The notes under the pieces are model-generated. The model made no database searches and was not told the DNA's origin. It worked only from the letters and a program-made list of their open reading frames with translations. From positions 2,460,001 to 2,492,000 of the forward strand of contig FP565575.1 in assembly GCA_000091165.1 (NCBI GenBank): 32,000 nt of DNA, in the 5' to 3' direction. Position 1 is the first letter of the stretch. Each line of letters opens with the position of its first letter. The DNA comes from Candidatus Methylomirabilis oxygeniifera (GTDB taxonomy: Bacteria; Methylomirabilota; Methylomirabilia; Methylomirabilales; Methylomirabilaceae). Both the position numbers and the translations under genes were made by a program. Shown in pieces: positions 11,533-23,979 of the stretch.

Positions 11533-12018
11533 TTAGGCGGCTCTGCCGGGTCGCGCCCTGGTCGCTCGTACGACCAGATCGACGTCACAGTCTAGGACAT
11601 GAAGGAGGGACAGCAGTTGGTCTATGGACTTTCGATAGTTGGTTTGATCCAGGAGGCGGTACAACTGCGCGGCAGATGTCCCCAGCCGACGGATGATCTC
11701 CCGTTTCGAAAGGGGGCTGGCCTGAACCCGCTGTTGGGCCTCGATGGTGAGCTTGTACAGGAGCGCGTCCCGCAAGTAGCCAGGGTCCTGGTTGTATTCC
11801 AGTACCTGCTCGAGGTGCACCGTCCCCTCCAGCCCAGACATGAGAATATAGGTAAACCCTTCCTGGTTCAGTTCCGGATCTACGAAAACCCGTTCAAGGG
11901 GATCCTGGACCGTAGGCTGGGGTTCGAGTTTGGCGTAGGGGAAGACCAACGTCCCAGTCGAGGTTGTGACCTCAAACACTTTCTTGCGGTTATTGCCGGC
12001 CACTGCTCGGATCTTCAT
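11533..12018 (-). CDS. Hypothetical protein with a C-terminal HTH-like segment
   Basis: 161-aa ORF. The C-terminal SKREIIRRLGTSAAQLYRLLD looks like a helix-turn-helix. The N-terminal half loosely resembles DUF2442-type small domains. No firm family call. Confidence 0.5.
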   Translation of the reverse strand: MKIRAVAGNNRKKVFEVTTSTGTLVFPYAKLEPQPTVQDPLERVFVDPELNQEGFTYILMSGLEGTVHLEQVLEYNQDPGYLRDALLYKLTIEAQQRVQASPLSKREIIRRLGTSAAQLYRLLDQTNYRKSIDQLLSLLHVLDCDVDLVVRATRARPGRAA

Positions 12019-12222
12019 AGCCGTCCCTCAGACTCAAGTTCTCCAATGAACTTGCATCTTCCTAGAATCCTTGCGGTCTCGCCAGACCTTTCTTGTCCTA
12101 ATAATCGCCAACTTCAAGGCCTCCGGCACTATGCCAGCGAATCGCAGCGACGCTGATTGGCGTCACTGCAAGCTGATGTCGGACCCCCAATGTGTCTCAG
12201 GCAGGAGTATTTTACTGCCGTA

Positions 12223-13287
12223 CTATCGATGCTTCCGCCCCCCTTTTTTCAGTGTCGCCTCAATTCCGGCTCGCACCAAATCTGCAACACTTCGCGAGAG
12301 TTCCTTGGTAACCGATGTCCAAGGCGCCTGAGCATCGTCCCGTATGTTAGCGAAGGCGTTCGGCTGCGACTGGTTCCAATTGAATGCCTTTTCCAACTCC
12401 TCGATGTTTAATAGACCGTCGTTGAGGTGTACGAACAGCCGCCCTTGTCTCAGCGCATGCCGGCGCTCCATGAGGCGCTCGGATTGATCTAACATTGCGC
12501 GGCCATATCGCCAGAGAAATACTGCTAGCAGAACGATCATGCCGTATGCCGAAAACGACTTACTGAATCGAAGAAACCCCTCCCAATGGTAGTTAGCCTC
12601 TCCCATTGGGATCTTGTCTTCCACAGGCACCAAACCGAATATGTTACCGTGATGGTAGACTACTATTGGTATTGGATTCGCGCCTGGGAGAGATTCCCAA
12701 CCGAGCAGATGAGCTAGCGCTAGACCGGCGCCCAACGCGACAATGAAAATCGCTAATCGGCTCGCCCGGTAACCATTTCTTTGATGCCTGGCAGAGTGCT
12801 CCTCCAGATACGCAATCGCCTTTTCAACGAAAAGGTCTGTGACGGCTAGATGATATGCTCTCAGTGCTGGATTCAGGACACGTGGTCCCTGATCCTTACG
12901 GGCTGGTGCGGGGGTTCCGGCTGCTAAAGTTATAGGTTCTGATTGGTGCGGTTGCTTCTCATTACTAAGCGACTCGTGCGCTCCATACTCAAGCGCCTCT
13001 GCTTCAGCTCGTTTGAGTTGAACGTGTCTGAGCCTCAAACGTCTGTAGGTTTTGCGCGCTATCTCCTCGTGATGATCGGTTTGGCCTCGCGTCAACGTGC
13101 TTATAAAGCGTTTGAGCCTTAAAAGGAAATGTCTCGCTATCTCCTTGGGGGGATCAATTTGGTTACCCGCTTCTGCGCTTTGAATGAAATCGTTGGTGAT
13201 AGTTTCGATTAGTTTAGAGTATGCCTGATCAACTGTCTCTTTAGATGTCTGTTGTGCTGCTTTCGGTTCGTTAGCATTGTCGTTCAT
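12223..13287 (-). CDS. Hypothetical 2-TM membrane protein
   Basis: 354 aa, with GGAG 9 nt upstream of the ATG. Two hydrophobic helices (LAIFIVALGAGLALAHLLGW, YGMIVLLAVFLWRYG) separate a ~170-aa helical N-domain from a ~95-aa C-domain. No recognisable motif. Lies in the lower-G+C island. Confidence 0.55.
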   Translation of the reverse strand: MNDNANEPKAAQQTSKETVDQAYSKLIETITNDFIQSAEAGNQIDPPKEIARHFLLRLKRFISTLTRGQTDHHEEIARKTYRRLRLRHVQLKRAEAEALEYGAHESLSNEKQPHQSEPITLAAGTPAPARKDQGPRVLNPALRAYHLAVTDLFVEKAIAYLEEHSARHQRNGYRASRLAIFIVALGAGLALAHLLGWESLPGANPIPIVVYHHGNIFGLVPVEDKIPMGEANYHWEGFLRFSKSFSAYGMIVLLAVFLWRYGRAMLDQSERLMERRHALRQGRLFVHLNDGLLNIEELEKAFNWNQSQPNAFANIRDDAQAPWTSVTKELSRSVADLVRAGIEATLKKGGRKHR

Positions 13288-13668
13288 TGGCGGTTTCTCC
13301 AGGCTCGCCTTCCATTTGTATCTCTTGACGCCAGAAGGGTTCTATTGTGTTATCAGTATCATTTCCGCCTCACACACTGCAAGAATATTGGTGCTCCTTC
13401 CTGACATGGGGACAATCCCTCGCCTCCGGCAAAGCAAGGGGGTCGGCGACATGTGGTCGCTACAGGTAGAATGAACTACCCCGCGGACAGACCGATGGGC
13501 AAGAACACCTGGACGACCTCTGTTTGGGAAAACTAATCCTCGACCCACTGTTTACGCTTCGATGCCCAGACAGCTTGGGGAACGCTTGCACCTTACCCCT
13601 GGTTCTCCGAACGCGTTTAGAGAGGCGATGAAATCATCATAATCAGGCATGGCTACTCTACTCGATCA

Positions 13669-13980
13669 TCAGTTTGCTGCGCTCGCTGCATCATCGATAG
13701 TTGACTCGACGTCGTTGGCTGCACTTTCAATATCATCGACGGCGGCCCGTACATGGGAGACGGCAATTCTCCAATCCGCATGGTCGAATTCATCGACTGC
13801 GGACGTCAGATCATCAACCGCACCTTTTAATGTTTCCACCTCTGACTGAGCGTCACCAAGTTTTGAGCGGACGTCTTCAAGCTGGGCCTCGAGTTCGGTA
13901 GCATGGTCGTTGTCACACCCTATAAGGGGCAGCGATAAAGCGAGTATTGCAACAAGAGATGGGAACGATGGCAGCTTCAC
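13669..13980 (-). CDS. Small acidic coiled-coil lipoprotein (putative)
   Basis: GTG start. Signal peptide with lipobox LPLIGC. The rest is Asp/Glu/Ala-rich heptad-like sequence. No clear SD. Confidence 0.45.
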   Translation of the reverse strand: MKLPSFPSLVAILALSLPLIGCDNDHATELEAQLEDVRSKLGDAQSEVETLKGAVDDLTSAVDEFDHADWRIAVSHVRAAVDDIESAANDVESTIDDAASAAN

Positions 13981-14290
13981 TTAGTAGTCCCAATCAAGAT
14001 AGGAAGGGGTCTCGCGACCCCTCTCCTCTCACACCACCGTACATACGGATCACGTACACGGCGGTTCCGCGAACCAACAGTCGAGAATTCCGCATGATGT
14101 GCAATGATCCCCCTGAATCCCTGTTGCCATATGTGGGCGCCGGCCAAGTTGTTGCCCCCATGGCGCGGCCTATCGGAATCAGCTATGCGCCTCACCTCGT
14201 TGTAGATCGCAAAGTGCGAAGTCCGCGAGAAGTTACGCGGCGTTGGCCGCCGCAAAGGGTAGTTCGAATCCGATCCCAGTGTTCCAGTTG

Positions 14291-15127
14291 TTATCGTAGC
14301 GGTCCACGTGGTTGTTCGTCATTCGGAAATGGATAGGTCGTTATCAGCAGTTCCGTTGTCTGGCATCGGTGCGAGGCTTCTGCGGCAAGCATACTAGATC
14401 GGTTGATACGATGATGAATACCAAATTCACGATATAATTCGCGGACGCTGTGGTGATCGGCATTGGAGAGCATGATCTTCGCACCTCGACTCGCCGCTCT
14501 CTTGATCGCAGAGGCGAGCCGCAACTGATCAGACCACAAGAACAACCTGTCGTTATACTTTATGAAATTATTGTTGTTATGCATAACGGTGTAGGGCGGG
14601 TCAACAAATACGAAGTCGTCCTTGCCAGCCCTGTTGATGGTGTCCTCAAAGTCTGCGGCCTGCAGCGATGCCTTACTCAAGCAGCCTGAGAGGGTTTGTA
14701 GGTATCCTTCGGGATATTCGACCAGAGTCTTGGAACCTATTGGGACATTGAAGTCGCCATTACGATTGACTCGGTAGATCCCATTAAAGCACGTCCGATT
14801 TAGATAAATGAAACGCACTGCCCGCTCCAGCGCGTTTTTTGGAAGTGTTGCGCGAATACGATAATATAACTCCTTGCTGTGTTGTTTTTGGAGCAAGTGT
14901 AGCCGTCTGTCGACCAATGCTGGATACTGTTGTAGGCACTCATATGCATTTATGAGATCAGGGTTGGTATCGGACAGAACGGCGCTGGTAGGTAAGAGAT
15001 AAAAGAACACCGCCCCTCCGCCCAGGAACGGTTCAATATAGCGGCGATAGGACGAGGGGAACATGGTGGCATGCTGTTGGACAAGCCATCTTTTGCCGCC
15101 TGGCCATTTAAGGAACGGCTCAGGCAT
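14291..15127 (-). CDS. Dam-family (D12 class, alpha group) N6-adenine DNA methyltransferase
   Basis: KWPGGKRWL N-terminal motif, AdoMet motif PFLGGGAVFF, catalytic DPPY (VFVDPPYTV). ATG at 15127 is preceded by GGAGGA and overlaps the stop of the upstream 785-aa ORF (ATGCCTGA). Confidence 0.85.
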   Translation of the reverse strand: MPEPFLKWPGGKRWLVQQHATMFPSSYRRYIEPFLGGGAVFFYLLPTSAVLSDTNPDLINAYECLQQYPALVDRRLHLLQKQHSKELYYRIRATLPKNALERAVRFIYLNRTCFNGIYRVNRNGDFNVPIGSKTLVEYPEGYLQTLSGCLSKASLQAADFEDTINRAGKDDFVFVDPPYTVMHNNNNFIKYNDRLFLWSDQLRLASAIKRAASRGAKIMLSNADHHSVRELYREFGIHHRINRSSMLAAEASHRCQTTELLITTYPFPNDEQPRGPLR

Positions 15128-17477
15128 CTTCGTCCTCCGCATCAGGGTTGGCTTCAAGAACGGGATTCTCTTGCGCTTCTTTCAGACGCGTCATCAGCTC
15201 ATCGTAAATGAAGTCTATGTACTCAAAATCCTCGACCTTGTAGTGCCGCTCTCTCGCAGGATGTGCCGGTATTCTCCGCAGTTCGTTAATCCGATTCATC
15301 CACTTGAGGTTCTTCGCAAGTCCCTTCTCACCAGGTTCTGGAATGTTGAATACCGTCTTGAAGAGAGGCCAGTTCTGGCGATTTTCCACGATCTTTTTCA
15401 TCTCAACGACTTCCAGATAGGTTTCCAGTGGAAGTCGTTCTTCGACTTCGTAGTCGAGCGAACGCTTGTATGCATCAGCCTTCAGCGCTTTATCTGGTAC
15501 TCCCTTGTCCCAGTAGGCCCCCTTATCTTCGCCATGAATAGCCCGGAAAACGTCAAAGATGAACTTCCGCATCTCGGATACGGTATCCTTGAGCTTGCTA
15601 TCTGCCTCCTGAATTCGCTCTTCTGACTGCTCCTCTTCCCACTGTTGCAAGCCCTCAGGCTGGAAGTCGGAATATTTCGTTTTGATCATTCTGCAGAGAC
15701 GGTAGTAATACTCCGGTGGTCCACCTGAGCCGAAAGGAACTTGAAAGGCTGCCTTAATCTGAGATGGTGTGCTTGATTCGAGGAAGTCCTCGATCGATTT
15801 CATGTATTCTTCGATTCCTATCATCACATCCTCGACCGTCATCTCGCGAGCATCAGCGGCCGTATTCGCTTCCCAGTACTTGACCAGCGCCCCCATGAGC
15901 ATGATGTATGCCTGGACGGCGACATTCGTGCAAAGATAACCATCCCGACCGTTTTCCCACTCGGATAGGTTTGCATTCCGAATAAATCCGAAATATTGGT
16001 TGATCGCTGAACGTGCCCGATCTAATGTCTCGGAGTCAGTGCAGCCGCAAAGAGCGCCCAGTTCGTAATTGCTATTGTTTAGAAGTGCTCGGCCAAGAAG
16101 TCCGGAACGTCGCAAAGCCTCCTTCAAAGCGGGGATTGTTAGGCAGGTCTTGTTTGTTGAAGGCATCCCTTGTTGAGTAATCCGATTGTAGAACGGTTCC
16201 CCAAGGTCCGCGTTCAAGCAGTTGATGAGGCGTGCGCTAATTGCGCCAATACGTTCGCTTGGGATCGAAGAACCCCATTTGAGCTCACCCTCGAGATCAT
16301 CGAGCAAATGTTTAGGTACGGATTTCTGCTCGTGATTGATTGTAACGAAGAGGTTGGCCTCCTCTGCCTTTGGTAGCATTTCGAATGCTACAACAATTAC
16401 ATTCTGATCAAGGTATTTGTCGTGAATAGGAGAAAACCCATATAGACGGTGCTGACCGTCGATGATCCACGCTGACCTGTATCGATCTGGTAAGTAGAGA
16501 TTTCCGAAGGTGACATTAGCGACTTCATTCTGCGTGACTTTATCAAAACGGACAGCGCGCGTGAAGTTGATGATCAGGTTATTTGGAAAGTAGCCGCCAG
16601 TTTTGATGAACTCTCCGATGTCACGCAGCCTGGAGCGGCTTACAAGGCGTTGATAGGTCGGCGCCCCTTCTGGGTCATTGAGCGATCGATGGTTGACAAA
16701 AGATATTTTCAGCAGGTGCCGCGGAGTCGTGATAAAGCAATAAAAGGGTTTACCTCCGAGCTTACCCTTGATTGCCGGGACAACCTTCCCGCTGAGTTCA
16801 GGGATTTGCTGGTCCTTCAGGAATTCAGCAAGAAACTGGTAACGGGCTGCTTTACCGAGATGATCGGCAATCTGCACGTAGTATCGGAGCTCTCGCTCCG
16901 TTATGATGCGAATGTTTTGACCAAGTGCCCGCTGTTTGTCTGGAGCTGACCAGATAATGTTTTCGGTGACAAGTAGCCAGATGATCTTCAACTTGACATC
17001 TGAACCATAGTGCTTGCGCACCGCGTTCGATATGGATCCTTTGAGATTGGCAAACTCCTCAATGTCCTTCTGCAGACTGCGCCGCGTCAGCTTCTCCGAT
17101 GCCTTGCATTCGGCAACGATAATCGTTTCATCATCTTTGCCGAAGACATCAATCTGCTTACGCAAGGGCTCCGCCCCTTTTCGCTCTATAAGTACCGAAA
17201 AGTTCCGCCCATCACTTATCTCGGGGTAGCCCAGTTTACACAGAAGCATCCATAATCTGTTTTCCAGCCTTTCGTCGATCTCCTTCTCGCGCCTGACTTT
17301 AGTGAGACGCTTGAGCTTCCGGTCAACCTGCCACCCCTTGGCCTCGTGATCGGGAATAGTGTCGGCGGATACAGATTTTTCGTCGAACAACTTTCGCCTG
17401 CGAACAGCTTCTCTACGGATACGCGAGGGATCGGTTAATAGCGGTCCAAGATAACATTCTGTAGCAGAATTGTTCAT
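15120..17477 (-). CDS. Three-module protein: Mrr-like PD-(D/E)xK nuclease + DGQHR (DndB/ParB-like) domain + C-terminal HEPN-like domain
   Basis: 785 aa. E72...D110 (QIDVFG)...E123-C-K125 (IVAECK; nt 17103-17111). DGQHR at residues 340-344 (nt 16446-16460), preceded by YQRLVS...FPNNLIINF and followed by LFVTINHEQKSV. INELRRIPAHP gives R734-x4-H739 (nt 15261-15278). Confidence 0.85.
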   Translation of the reverse strand: MNNSATECYLGPLLTDPSRIRREAVRRRKLFDEKSVSADTIPDHEAKGWQVDRKLKRLTKVRREKEIDERLENRLWMLLCKLGYPEISDGRNFSVLIERKGAEPLRKQIDVFGKDDETIIVAECKASEKLTRRSLQKDIEEFANLKGSISNAVRKHYGSDVKLKIIWLLVTENIIWSAPDKQRALGQNIRIITERELRYYVQIADHLGKAARYQFLAEFLKDQQIPELSGKVVPAIKGKLGGKPFYCFITTPRHLLKISFVNHRSLNDPEGAPTYQRLVSRSRLRDIGEFIKTGGYFPNNLIINFTRAVRFDKVTQNEVANVTFGNLYLPDRYRSAWIIDGQHRLYGFSPIHDKYLDQNVIVVAFEMLPKAEEANLFVTINHEQKSVPKHLLDDLEGELKWGSSIPSERIGAISARLINCLNADLGEPFYNRITQQGMPSTNKTCLTIPALKEALRRSGLLGRALLNNSNYELGALCGCTDSETLDRARSAINQYFGFIRNANLSEWENGRDGYLCTNVAVQAYIMLMGALVKYWEANTAADAREMTVEDVMIGIEEYMKSIEDFLESSTPSQIKAAFQVPFGSGGPPEYYYRLCRMIKTKYSDFQPEGLQQWEEEQSEERIQEADSKLKDTVSEMRKFIFDVFRAIHGEDKGAYWDKGVPDKALKADAYKRSLDYEVEERLPLETYLEVVEMKKIVENRQNWPLFKTVFNIPEPGEKGLAKNLKWMNRINELRRIPAHPARERHYKVEDFEYIDFIYDELMTRLKEAQENPVLEANPDAEDEDA

Positions 17478-17938
17478 AATATTGCGTTCCTTATTGAATC
17501 ATTAAGTATGGTGCCACTGGGGCAGCATTATACCACGATAGGGCGTTCTGAAGTCTATAAGCAACTGATGTTGCGGGATCCCTGACTTACCGCAACGCTG
17601 CAAACTACGCCCTTTACGAAATACAACGCGGACCTTGCAGTCTATTTCACTATCCCCCGCAGTTATCCAGGCTGCTACGTTACCGCCATGATCGCAGGTG
17701 ATCAGCCTAGCCGTCCACACTCTGTCCGCCACGACAGACCTCTAGCGCCGACAGGCCCGGGACTGCCATAAACAAAACGGCCCCTTGGGGCATAAAAACC
17801 TCAAAGGGCCGCGAACATACGTTCCTTTGCCCACGCTGTTTAGGTGCGATTGCCGATCCTTACCGACTTCGTTGGGCGCATCCTCTCCTTCAATGAGGTG
17901 GAGCCAGTGTGCAGCGTAATTCGAGTCCGGTCCCAGTT

Positions 17939-18703
17939 TTACCTCATCGGCGGCTGCGGGATCACATGCTTATGAGAATTGCCTGAACGCTGTGTATGAT
18001 CCCGAAACCACAGCGTGATAGGCCCGACTGACGCGGGCTTGGCATCGAAGGCTTGGGGTGACCGAACGTCAATCCAAAACTCTGTTGACCGTTCAACGGG
18101 AATCGGGAAAGGCGCTTTTCTTCCATCGGCCTCCCGAAAGATTTCATTTATGGTCCACGTCCCCACTCCCTCCTCCGTAACTCCAAGCTCGATGATGTCC
18201 AGCGGCTGACCTTCCGCGATTAATCGGACCTTGAATCGCCATCCGCTGACATAGCTCCCACCAGACGACCAATAACCAATGGGATTCACTGGCTCCGGAA
18301 GTTCAATCCGAAGCCGTCCAGGAAATCGCTCTGCCTGAGTATCAGAAATTCGGTTGGCCGTCTTGCCAATCTCCGAAAAGGCCGCCTCTTCGGCCTTGGA
18401 CTTCCATTCGCGGAGAAGGTCGGCAGAGTAGCGGAAAAAGTCATTGTCAACCAGCTTCGCGCAGGTTTGGCACAGCCAGATCCCGTTATTAGGGTGGCTA
18501 CGCTCTTCGGAACTCAATGATGAATCATATCGTGGTCCGCCAGCGGACGCAGCCGTGATGTGCGCCGCCACACCGACGTTAAGAGTCTTTGCGGAGTCCA
18601 GTTGGGGACCACTTGTCACTGCTCGGCACTCAAGATTAGAGCAGCGATTCGCAACGCGGTTAGCGATAGCCCGCTTTACGTCTTCCGTAAAATCGTCTCT
18701 CAT
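17939..18703 (-). CDS. C4-type HNH endonuclease-like protein with an unknown beta-rich C-terminal domain
   Basis: 254 aa. Contains CSNLEC...GVAAHITAASAGGPRYD...NNGIWLCQTCAKLVDND (Cys21/26/78/81, His48, Asn72/73). The C-terminal ~140 aa has no recognisable motif. Confidence 0.7.
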   Translation of the reverse strand: MRDDFTEDVKRAIANRVANRCSNLECRAVTSGPQLDSAKTLNVGVAAHITAASAGGPRYDSSLSSEERSHPNNGIWLCQTCAKLVDNDFFRYSADLLREWKSKAEEAAFSEIGKTANRISDTQAERFPGRLRIELPEPVNPIGYWSSGGSYVSGWRFKVRLIAEGQPLDIIELGVTEEGVGTWTINEIFREADGRKAPFPIPVERSTEFWIDVRSPQAFDAKPASVGPITLWFRDHTQRSGNSHKHVIPQPPMR

Positions 18704-23268: not shown

Positions 23269-23320
23269 TTAGCCTTGCAGTGTCTGCAACTGTTCAAGCG
23301 ATGCGCTGTCCTCGCCGTCG
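23269..23320 (-). repeat. Direct repeat copy 1 (higA 3' end)
   Basis: 44/52 nt identical to 24247-24298 in the same orientation, stop codon included. Confidence 0.8.
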
Positions 23321-23652
23321 GCTTCAGTGCTTTGTGAGGCCGGGGTACCCGAATGAACCTCGCGCAGAGTCCATGGTTTGATCTTCGCCAGCGTCTTGGC
23401 AAGGGAATCCTTGGCCTTGGTTGCGTCGTAGTCCATCTGTAAGCCGATCCAGAAATCCTCGGACATGCCGAAAAACCGCGATAAACGCAGACCCGTATCG
23501 ACGGTAATGGCGCGCGTGCCGGTCACGATCTCACCGATGCGTCGTTGCGGTACGCCGATCTCCTTGGCCAGTCGATACTGCGTGATGCCTATGGGTTTTA
23601 GAAATTCTTCCAGCAGAAGTTCTCCGGGGTGGGGATAGGGGACTTTACGCAT
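23269..23652 (-). CDS. higA: HigA-type HTH antitoxin with an extended C-terminal tail
   Basis: HPGELLLEEFLKPIGITQYRLAKEIGVPQRRIGEIVTGTRAITVDTGLRLSRFFGMSEDFW is the classic HigA/VapI HTH. About 30 extra residues end in DGEDSASLEQLQTLQG. Overlaps higB by 8 nt. Confidence 0.85.
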   Translation of the reverse strand: MRKVPYPHPGELLLEEFLKPIGITQYRLAKEIGVPQRRIGEIVTGTRAITVDTGLRLSRFFGMSEDFWIGLQMDYDATKAKDSLAKTLAKIKPWTLREVHSGTPASQSTEADGEDSASLEQLQTLQG

Positions 23653-23944
23653 GATGTCTCTCCCAGTGATAGTCTACGATCTCAACGTCCTTCGGGCCTT
23701 CCGTCGTCCACACGAAGCACACACGGAACTGATCGTTAATGCGGATGCTATACTGCCCGAAGCGGTCGCCTTTCAAGGCTTCGAGCCGGTTGCCCGGCGG
23801 CACGCGCAAGTCATCGAGTCTTCCGACCCGGTTCAGTATTGCCAGCTTGCGCATGGCAACGCATTCGATGTGCGCAAACCGCTTGATACGTTTGCCGCCA
23901 AACAGGCCTTGCGTCTCAGCGCACTTGAACGACCGGATCGGCAT
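23645..23944 (-). CDS. higB: HigB-type toxin (RelE/ParE superfamily, plasmid-maintenance killer protein)
   Basis: IRSFKCAETQGLF...LNRVGRLDDLRVPPGNRLEALKGDRFGQYSIRINDQFRVCFVW...VEIVDYH matches the HigB family pattern. ATG at 23944. Confidence 0.85.
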   Translation of the reverse strand: MPIRSFKCAETQGLFGGKRIKRFAHIECVAMRKLAILNRVGRLDDLRVPPGNRLEALKGDRFGQYSIRINDQFRVCFVWTTEGPKDVEIVDYHWERHHA

Positions 23945-23979
23945 ACGCAAATACTAACGATATGCGTTAGTATTGTCAA
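23942..23979 (-). promoter_or_regulatory. higBA promoter with an overlapping palindromic operator
   Basis: Minus strand reads TTGACA-17 nt-TAGTAT-TTGCGT-ATG. A perfect 10-bp inverted repeat AATACTAACG-N5-CGTTAGTATT (23950-23974) covers the spacer and the -10. Confidence 0.65.

Follow-up and report, generated by a model that had tools for sequence, protein, structure and literature searches.

The window analysed here is a stretch of 32,000 nucleotides (nt) of the Candidatus Methylomirabilis oxygeniifera genome (assembly GCA_000091165.1, contig FP565575.1, positions 2,460,001 to 2,492,000 of the forward strand), and coordinates given below are positions in this window. Its minus strand carries two overlapping genes, one at 15120-17477 for a protein of 785 amino acids (aa) with restriction endonuclease-like (REase-like), DGQHR/ParB-like and HEPN-like domains, and one at 14291-15127 for a Dam-family N6-adenine DNA methyltransferase of 278 aa. 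The start codon of the methylase gene (ATG, 15127-15125) overlaps the TGA of the 785-aa gene by 8 nt, in ATGCCTGA. We consider it likely, with some reserve, that these two genes (14291-17477, minus strand) form a mobile defence cassette of the restriction-modification (R-M) kind, with the 785-aa protein as its restriction or effector subunit. An initial annotation made from the DNA letters alone had described the 785-aa protein as an unusual dual effector, with a DNase-type and an RNase-type module around a DGQHR/ParB-like core. The three-part architecture is borne out by profiles, an AlphaFold2 (AF2) model, Foldseek and motif conservation. The protein is not an isolated oddity, since together with the overlapping Dam-family methylase it makes one half of an R-M-like cassette; the minus strand and the methylase gene directly downstream had been overlooked.

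The 785-codon open reading frame (ORF) runs from ATG to TGA, while the plus-strand frame is full of stops. The identical 785-aa gene has been called on independent metagenome contigs with the same neighbourhood, and the identical 278-aa methylase gene has been called on other contigs too. A word-indexed search gave 1433 homologues, the best 120 of which are at least 69 % identical and ~780-790 aa long. When 1.84 billion cluster representatives (50 % identity) were searched exhaustively with HMMER, 2286 of them matched at E ≤ 1e-3 and 534 at E ≤ 1e-30; most of the matches listed are 745-795 aa long and align end to end, down to ~27 % identity. The ORF is therefore real and chance is ruled out, because it has 1433 homologues and its full length is kept down to ~27 % identity. 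A second homologue search, made with a C-terminal profile, brought up no new architectures, its matches being for the most part fragments of this family, and searches of the PDB with the full protein, a 94-member profile and the C-terminal profile found no significant relatives by sequence or profile. Promoter and terminator scans gave background level only.

The 278-aa protein is matched by Pfam MethyltransfD12 (E 2.8e-51) and by TIGR00571 dam (246 bits, cut-off 114.85). Its association with the 785-aa gene was followed in a survey of 92 loci carrying a relative of the latter, from many phyla including Acidobacteriota, Planctomycetota, Verrucomicrobiota, Desulfobacterota, Ignavibacteria, Actinobacteria (Coriobacteriia) and Gemmatimonadota, and also, among others, from Alpha-, Beta- and Gammaproteobacteria. 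An intact adjacent N6-methyladenine (m6A) methylase of one of three types was found in 84 of the 92. It is most often a same-strand Dam-like gene immediately downstream (74 loci) and more rarely a Dam-like gene directly upstream (3), a longer D12 methylase (4), an MT-A70 methylase (2) or a convergent D12 methylase (1). One further locus has a Dam fragment on the opposite strand and a broken big ORF, four have no adjacent methylase where the contig ends beside the gene, two plasmid relatives have a triad of small DGQHR, radical-SAM and GHKL ATPase genes instead, and one (L064) has no methylase despite full flanks. Nothing besides the methylase is conserved around the 785-aa gene in the 92 loci. 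In 84 of these loci the arrangement is the one that characterizes R-M systems, where the genes for a nuclease and a DNA methyltransferase lie side by side and are inherited together. That an m6A methylase is kept while its family is swapped is what would be expected of a restriction subunit that reads adenine methylation. Judged from this arrangement, the gene at 14291-15127 is the cognate modification gene, translationally coupled to the 785-aa gene.

The coupling also bears on the possibility that the protein is a modification-dependent, Type IV-like nuclease that attacks modified foreign DNA in the manner of GmrSD, BrxU and SspE, with the methylase functionally separate. The known enzymes that combine a ParB fold with a nuclease are indeed modification-dependent or modification-sensing (PMC4619093, PMC12839542). 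Such enzymes have no cognate methylase, whereas here an intact one is adjacent in 84 of 92 loci and usually overlapping, and no DUF262 or DUF1524/HNH match was found in the 785-aa protein. We therefore regard a Type IV-like function as very improbable.

In an alignment with Escherichia coli Dam, the methylase keeps K9, N120, R124, P134 and DPPY, which we take to be the GATC-reading positions in the EcoDam-DNA structure. As these positions are kept, GATC is the likely target. GATC is not avoided, the ratio of observed to expected sites (O/E) being 1.01 in the window and 0.97 pooled over 80 host loci, values which are uninformative on specificity. The sequence is very frequent in the window, with 284 sites in 32 kb. 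CTAG alone is depleted, and strongly so in the window (19 observed, 39.5 expected, O/E 0.48), which we regard as generic.

The middle part of the 785-aa protein, residues 233-531 (15885-16781, minus strand), is a DGQHR domain of the ParB/Srx fold and DndB/DpdB type. TIGR03187 matches residues 235-531 over positions 1-275 of its 276 (E 1.3e-45, 156.3 bits, cut-off 58.85), and Pfam DndB (PF14072) matches residues 233-386 (E 3.9e-12, 46.3 bits, threshold 29.1). The strings quoted for this part in the initial annotation are present, namely YQRLVSRSRLRDIGEFI (residues 275-291), FPNNLIINF (297-305), WIIDGQHRLYGF (337-348) and LFVTINHEQKSV (376-387). The QR pair (Q276-R277), the DGQHR pentapeptide (residues 340-344, nt 16446-16460) and FxxxN (F377-N381) are the hallmark motifs as defined in PMC4619093, and all three are invariant in the 94 diverse family members from which the conservation counts in this work were drawn. 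On these profile matches and motifs, membership of the DGQHR superfamily is certain. The whole-chain AF2 model is poor in this region, its predicted local distance difference test score (pLDDT) falling below 50 around residues 339-353.

Assignment to a particular known type within the superfamily was tried and rejected. As DndB (TIGR03233) the protein scores 19.7 bits with a cut-off of 328, and the window has no dnd genes. As DpdB (NF041060) it scores 85.3 bits with a cut-off of 300, and no TGT-like dpdA was found among the neighbours scanned. It reaches 78.5 bits in the Dnd-associated equivalog, with a cut-off of 450, and a GmrSD-type identity was dismissed on the missing DUF262 and DUF1524/HNH matches, the DGQHR form of the motif and the presence of a methylase partner. 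Of the PADLOC models only DpdB (E 1.6e-25 to the core) and DndB match, both partially. The DndB-type identity given initially thus reduces to superfamily membership. The same name is found in JGI annotations, where many family members of ~780 aa are called 'DNA sulfur modification protein DndB', a label that is systematically wrong, since these members do not reach the cut-off of the DndB equivalog and have no dnd genes beside them. It had further been stated that DndB-type proteins normally stand alone without nuclease modules, while two comparative-genomics papers from 2013 already list nuclease fusions (PMC3632139, PMC3710099). A DndB-like protein has been reported to bind ATP and GTP (bioRxiv 10.1101/2025.10.10.680097), and in PMC12839542 DpdB is called a ParB-like ATPase; GmrSD joins a ParB to an HNH domain (PMC4619093, PMC12839542). 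By analogy, the DGQHR core probably binds a nucleoside triphosphate (NTP), and perhaps hydrolyses it, acting as a switch that couples DNA engagement to the nuclease.

Residues ~65-195 (16893-17285, minus strand) form a PD-(D/E)xK, i.e. restriction endonuclease-like, domain, as indicated by Foldseek and motif conservation. The AF2 whole-chain model has a mean pLDDT of 71 and reaches ~85 over residues 10-200. The model has helix 67-81, strands 94-99, 102-114 and 118-125, helix 136-157 and strand 164-171, i.e. an alpha-beta-beta-beta-alpha-beta core. It places E72 in helix 1, D110 in strand 2 and E123-x-K125 in strand 3, within the strings LENRLWMLLCKLGYPEIS (residues 71-88) and KQIDVFGKDDETIIVAECKAS (107-127), both found as quoted. 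In the model, this placement of E72, D110, E123 and K125 is the canonical PD-(D/E)xK layout. When the full model was compared with the PDB using Foldseek, Cdn1 was the best match (E 4e-4), and VC1899 (1xmx), Card1 (6xl1), Can2, AF1548 and McrC were also found. The probabilities were 0.75-1.0 overall and ~1.0 for Cdn1, VC1899, Card1, Can2 and AF1548. Card1 (6xl1) superposes on the domain over 133 columns with a root-mean-square deviation of 3.4 Å. In Pfam, Card1_endonuc matches the protein below threshold (E 0.055, 13.5 bits, gathering threshold (GA) 26.4); relatives match Card1_endonuc at E 0.003-0.04 and Hjc at E 0.015, likewise below threshold, and no other Pfam nuclease family was touched. 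The predicted PD-(D/E)xK fold of residues ~65-195 is thus well supported. The nuclease core proposed initially was found by structure prediction, whereas its proposed Mrr-like character was not: according to the model, the domain is nearest to the effector nucleases Card1, Can2, Cdn1 and VC1899 and not specifically to Mrr.

The ~64 residues in front of this domain (17286-17477, minus strand) form a small alpha/beta segment in the AF2 secondary structure, with pLDDT 81-89 beyond residue 10. They are among the less conserved parts of the protein, with G48-W49 nearly invariant, and have no Pfam match of any kind. No Pfam match to RAMA or another known m6A reader was found in the N-terminus, even at E values up to 10.

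On the other side of the core, residues 545-613 (15639-15845, minus strand) are a helical connector subdomain without a family match, with helices 548-568, 571-578, 586-601 and 610-616 in the model. It leads to residues ~614-775 (15153-15638, minus strand), which probably form a Swt1-like HEPN domain, as judged from sequence profiles and from the position of the motif in the model. This motif, N731-x2-R734-x4-H739, lies at nt 15261-15287 within the string WMNRINELRRIPAHP (residues 726-740), again as quoted. It has the Rx4-6H form typical of HEPN, in which the R often has a polar residue (N or D) in front of it, here N731. Residues 545-785 were modelled separately with AF2 from 37 diverse sequences, giving an all-helical model with pLDDT 89.6. 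A long helix (619-648) is followed by helix 663-673, short inserted helices (684-710), helix 725-734, which R734 closes, the loop that holds H739, and a long last helix (748-770). As in HEPN domains, R734 is thus at the end of a helix and H739 in the loop after it, within a domain made of helices only, and the HEPN paper PMC3710099 puts Rx4-6H at the same place, the helix-3 end and loop. The Swt1/Abi branch named initially agrees with the profiles. PF18731 HEPN_Swt1 was matched by 19 of the 37 C-terminal segments (E up to 1; best 2.4e-7), and Abi_2, HEPN_Apea, RiboL-PSP, DUF4145 and MAE_28990 by 2-4 segments each. In full-length relatives the HEPN_Swt1 match covers ~624-763, with 16-24 bits in the ten scanned (GA 27.5). 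A HEPN-only profile searched against the PDB ranked HepS (9oij) first, aligned on N..R....H, though only at E 0.24.

The catalytic residues of both putative nucleases are conserved in most of the 94 members. In the PD-(D/E)xK domain, D110 is kept in 94 %, E123 in 85 %, E72 in 80 % and K125 in 69 % (with T in a further 14 %), and in the HEPN domain R734 is kept in 88 %, H739 in 85 % and N731 in 72 %. Both motifs are fully intact in 48 members. One member, P0239, has lost both, when K125T is counted as intact. Mean identity to the window protein is 45 % in the first half of the DGQHR domain, 33 % in the REase-like domain, 25 % in the N-terminal 64 residues and 22 % in the HEPN part, which is the fastest-evolving region. 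Judged from these alignments, the ParB-like core is the indispensable part of the protein, and members that have lost both nuclease motifs are very rare.

This pattern is relevant to the idea that the protein is a DndB/DpdB-like regulator or accessory of the methyltransferase, acting by repression or ATP-dependent loading, with no restriction and with nuclease-like domains that are vestigial DNA or RNA binders. According to published reports, DndB represses the dnd operon in an ATP-modulated manner and DpdB is an ATPase assisting in DNA modification, and the DGQHR core alone is universally invariant. A vestigial role fits poorly with catalytic residues that are conserved in most members in both folds and jointly lost in about one of 94. 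The protein is, moreover, encoded upstream of and translationally coupled to a methylase of a kind that works unaided in other Dam systems, its scores are far under the DndB and DpdB equivalog cut-offs, and no operator-like repeats were found upstream of its gene. A purely regulatory role is therefore improbable.

More weight is due to a methylation-gated abortive infection system, in which the HEPN RNase would be the main effector, the REase-like and DGQHR parts would sense unmethylated DNA and the methylase would prevent self-activation, so that defence would come through RNA cleavage and growth arrest and not through cutting of phage DNA. About 17 of the 94 members lack D110 or E123 and still keep N..R....H, with the Dam partner also retained in members with degenerate REase residues. 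Folds of the Card1/Can2 type are found in indiscriminate effectors, and HEPN domains fused to R-M nucleases have been proposed, in passages of PMC3710099 and PMC10853773, to be suicide or back-up effectors. On the other hand, R734 or H739 has been lost in 15 of the 94 members, nearly all of which keep the acidic residues of PD-(D/E)xK (10 with the full E-D-E-K), the HEPN part evolves fastest, and the window protein and 65 of the 92 surveyed loci have a complete REase triad. It is thus unlikely, though less so than the regulatory role, that the HEPN domain is the main effector.

In the composition profile the cassette falls within a low-GC island (12200-17800) of ~5.6 kb, with ~50 % GC compared to 55-65 % in the flanks, in a host genome of NC10/Methylomirabilota. 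The flanking GlgB shares 88 % identity with proteins of NC10/Methylomirabilota, and for the 785-aa protein the identity to proteins from metagenome-assembled genomes (MAGs) of Acidobacteriota and Planctomycetota is 83-84 %. Recent horizontal transfer is the only plausible source of such identity across phyla, and the cassette moves horizontally, as judged from these sequence comparisons. Distant family members are found on plasmids. Phage genomes hardly carry the family at all, giving only three partial matches, confined to DGQHR. In L090/L091, the closest relative (93 % identity) is immediately preceded by a ThsB-type TIR gene and an ORF of 173 aa (497-1424), which suggests that its neighbourhood is a defence island.

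A Dam-family methylase that probably reads GATC, together with a PD-(D/E)xK nuclease, could also bring to mind MutH-like strand discrimination, i.e. a housekeeping function with the cell's Dam in mismatch repair or replication control. The patchy spread across phyla at 83-84 % identity, the low-GC island, the plasmid copies and the defence-island neighbours speak against such a role; no fold match to MutH was obtained and HEPN has no role in mismatch repair. Among the explanations considered we find this one the hardest to believe.

Returning to the R-M-like cassette, the mechanism that we infer would begin with the Dam-family methyltransferase, which would mark host DNA with N6-methyladenine, probably at GATC, and thereby protect it. 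The DGQHR/ParB-fold core would bind, and perhaps hydrolyse, an NTP and serve as a DNA-engaged switch (compare DndB, DpdB, GmrSD, BrxU and SspE) that couples recognition of unmethylated DNA to the Card1-like PD-(D/E)xK nuclease. The N-terminal PD-(D/E)xK domain would then cut the DNA. The Swt1-like HEPN domain would most likely dimerise the enzyme and provide a second activity, directed at RNA, which would serve as a back-up or bring about abortive infection. It is a reasonable inference, made already in the initial annotation, that the ParB-like core governs both nucleases. A more far-reaching form of the proposal, which we put forward only tentatively and hold to be doubtful, is that two tiers of immunity are combined in one chain, where an NTP switch senses unmarked DNA and licenses both a DNase and a HEPN RNase, either arm of which can be lost but almost never both. 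This would be an undescribed NTP-gated class of R-M system, apart from Types I-IV, in at least a dozen bacterial phyla.

Several observations weigh against an R-M-like cassette with a DNA-cutting 785-aa subunit. The closest structural relatives of the N-terminal domain, Card1 and Can2, are non-specific effector nucleases and so give no pointer to an element that would read sequence or methylation state. Several of the loci whose protein lacks D110 or E123 keep Dam as well as N..R....H, and the REase-like domain therefore cannot be a universal DNA-cutting effector. In such members the domain may bind DNA only, and lineages with a dead REase triad must either have another effector at the DNA level or defend themselves through the HEPN arm. 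The window protein itself has no Pfam HEPN match, and Foldseek on the HEPN model gave nothing significant (best E 1.5 in the PDB, 0.7 in BFVD). The two plasmid relatives adjoin the triad of small DGQHR, radical-SAM and GHKL ATPase genes and not a methylase. Targeted literature searches found no biochemical or genetic work on any member of the family.

The plasmid relatives are ~30 % identical to the window protein and come from Novosphingobium aromaticivorans pNL1 (L087, 7254-11394) and an Agrobacterium plasmid (L088, 7431-11654). The conserved triad beside them encodes a small DGQHR protein of ~340 aa, a radical-SAM protein of ~540 aa and a GHKL-type ATPase of ~520 aa, and it may be a different, undescribed DNA-modification module paired with the same effector. 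In about 7 of the 92 loci (L019, L025, L027, L033, L037, L061 and L046) the big ORF is interrupted or N-terminally truncated and the Dam gene or a fragment of it persists. Either the restriction gene may be decaying, with the methylase left behind as an orphan, or the MAG assemblies, built from long reads, may contain indel errors. In three unrelated genomes the cassette is flanked by a second gene pair (L001, 5562-7541; L003, 9824-11465; L056, 2988-4614), consisting of a DndB-like protein of 360-458 aa followed by a protein of ~180-197 aa without a Pfam match.

The remaining island ORFs were considered as components of the system and rejected. The ORFs of 354, 103, 254 and 76 aa accompany the cassette only on near-identical contigs, with the 254- and 103-aa ORFs also beside the 93 % identical copy, and none of the four was found in the remaining surveyed loci. 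The 254-aa ORF (17939-18703, minus strand) has no Pfam or NCBIfam match and shows an HNH-like pattern, CxxC...H...N...CxxC (CSNLEC...AAHITAAS...NGIWLCQTCAKLVDN). A copy with 85 % identity occurs in L090/L091 on the other side of the cassette, downstream of the methylase, and the ORF may be a separate mobile nuclease gene that shares the island. The 354-aa ORF (12223-13287, minus strand) has no family match, and the 103-aa ORF (13669-13980, minus strand), which is found beside the L090 cassette too, is coiled-coil or lipoprotein-like. A further gene assigned to the island encodes a 161-aa protein (11533-12018, minus strand) with a weak C-terminal helix-turn-helix and, like the 354-aa ORF, is shared only with near-identical contigs. 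Some kilobases away from the cassette, a HigB-like toxin (101 aa) with an HTH_3 antitoxin (127 aa) is encoded at 23269-23950 (minus strand).

Specialists would not be surprised by the fusion of these domains; what sets the family apart is that it is very large and mis-annotated and would provide an R-M system with an unusual restriction subunit. Passages of Makarova et al. (2013, PMC3632139) describe the COG1479/DUF262/DGQHR ParB-like core as often fused to HNH, PD-(D/E)xK and HEPN domains and linked to R-M. A table in Anantharaman et al. (2013, PMC3710099) lists a Swt1-like HEPN fused to ParB, Saro_3948, as 'mostly active'. A full-length relative of the window protein (30 % identity, E 8e-121) is encoded on plasmid pNL1 of N. 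aromaticivorans, the organism of the Saro_ locus tags, and its identity with Saro_3948 could not be confirmed. The present family resembles the fusions catalogued in these passages in its ParB/DGQHR core, its HEPN of the Swt1/Abi2 branch and its R-M context. The catalogue entry, a table line and one sentence in the text searched, differs in naming no N-terminal REase, no obligate Dam partner and no experiment. Targeted literature searches found neither this exact architecture in a functionally characterised family nor a description of the full REase-DGQHR-HEPN chain as an obligate partner of a Dam-family methylase, and PADLOC has no dedicated model for the family.

If the proposed function is correct, thousands of genes now named 'DGQHR domain-containing' or 'DndB' would encode nuclease subunits of a very widespread R-M-like defence family. 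It would also mean that a ParB-type nucleotide switch, of the kind known from chromosome segregation, GmrSD, SspE and DpdB, can gate a restriction nuclease. The family makes the 2013 proposal that HEPN RNases in restriction fusions are a back-up suicide arm directly testable. It may further provide a new methylation-sensitive nuclease, possibly directed to GATC, for which D110/E123/K125, R344 and R734/H739 are mutational targets.

Compared to known systems, the 785-aa protein shares with GmrSD, BrxU and SspE a ParB/Srx fold with the DGQxR phosphate-binding motif, the QR pair and FxxxN, joined to an endonuclease in one chain, and a relation to defence. It differs from them in having DGQHR instead of DGQQR, and an N-terminal PD-(D/E)xK and a C-terminal HEPN domain instead of a C-terminal HNH. 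GmrSD, BrxU and SspE belong to Type IV or sense modification and lack a cognate methylase, whereas the 785-aa family is almost always coupled to an m6A methylase. With DndB and DpdB it has a homologous DGQHR domain in common and, by analogy, a likely shared NTP-binding or ATPase role; these proteins are ~350 aa long, carry no such nuclease domains and have dndCDE or dpdA as partners, which are absent here. Structurally, the N-terminal nuclease domain comes closest to Card1, Can2, Cdn1 and VC1899, a likeness at the fold level only (12-17 % identity). The Card1-type nucleases are switched by cyclic oligoadenylate on CARF, whereas the 785-aa protein has no CARF and its switch is presumed to be the DGQHR/ParB domain. 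As with PrrC, RloC and other HEPN RNases found inside R-M systems, a HEPN RNase module with Rx4-6H, here a probable one, is tied to a restriction system, either physically or genetically, which PMC3710099 proposes to be a second line of defence. PrrC and RloC are separate proteins with N-terminal domains of the ABC-ATPase type, kept latent by a Type I enzyme, whereas the HEPN domain is here fused to the presumed restriction nuclease. The two-gene arrangement of a restriction and a modification gene, with a Dam-family m6A methylase that has the DNA-contact positions of EcoDam, is that of the Type II systems DpnII and MboI. The restriction protein is nevertheless unrelated to theirs (no DpnII-family match), three times larger, and equipped with ParB-like and HEPN domains.

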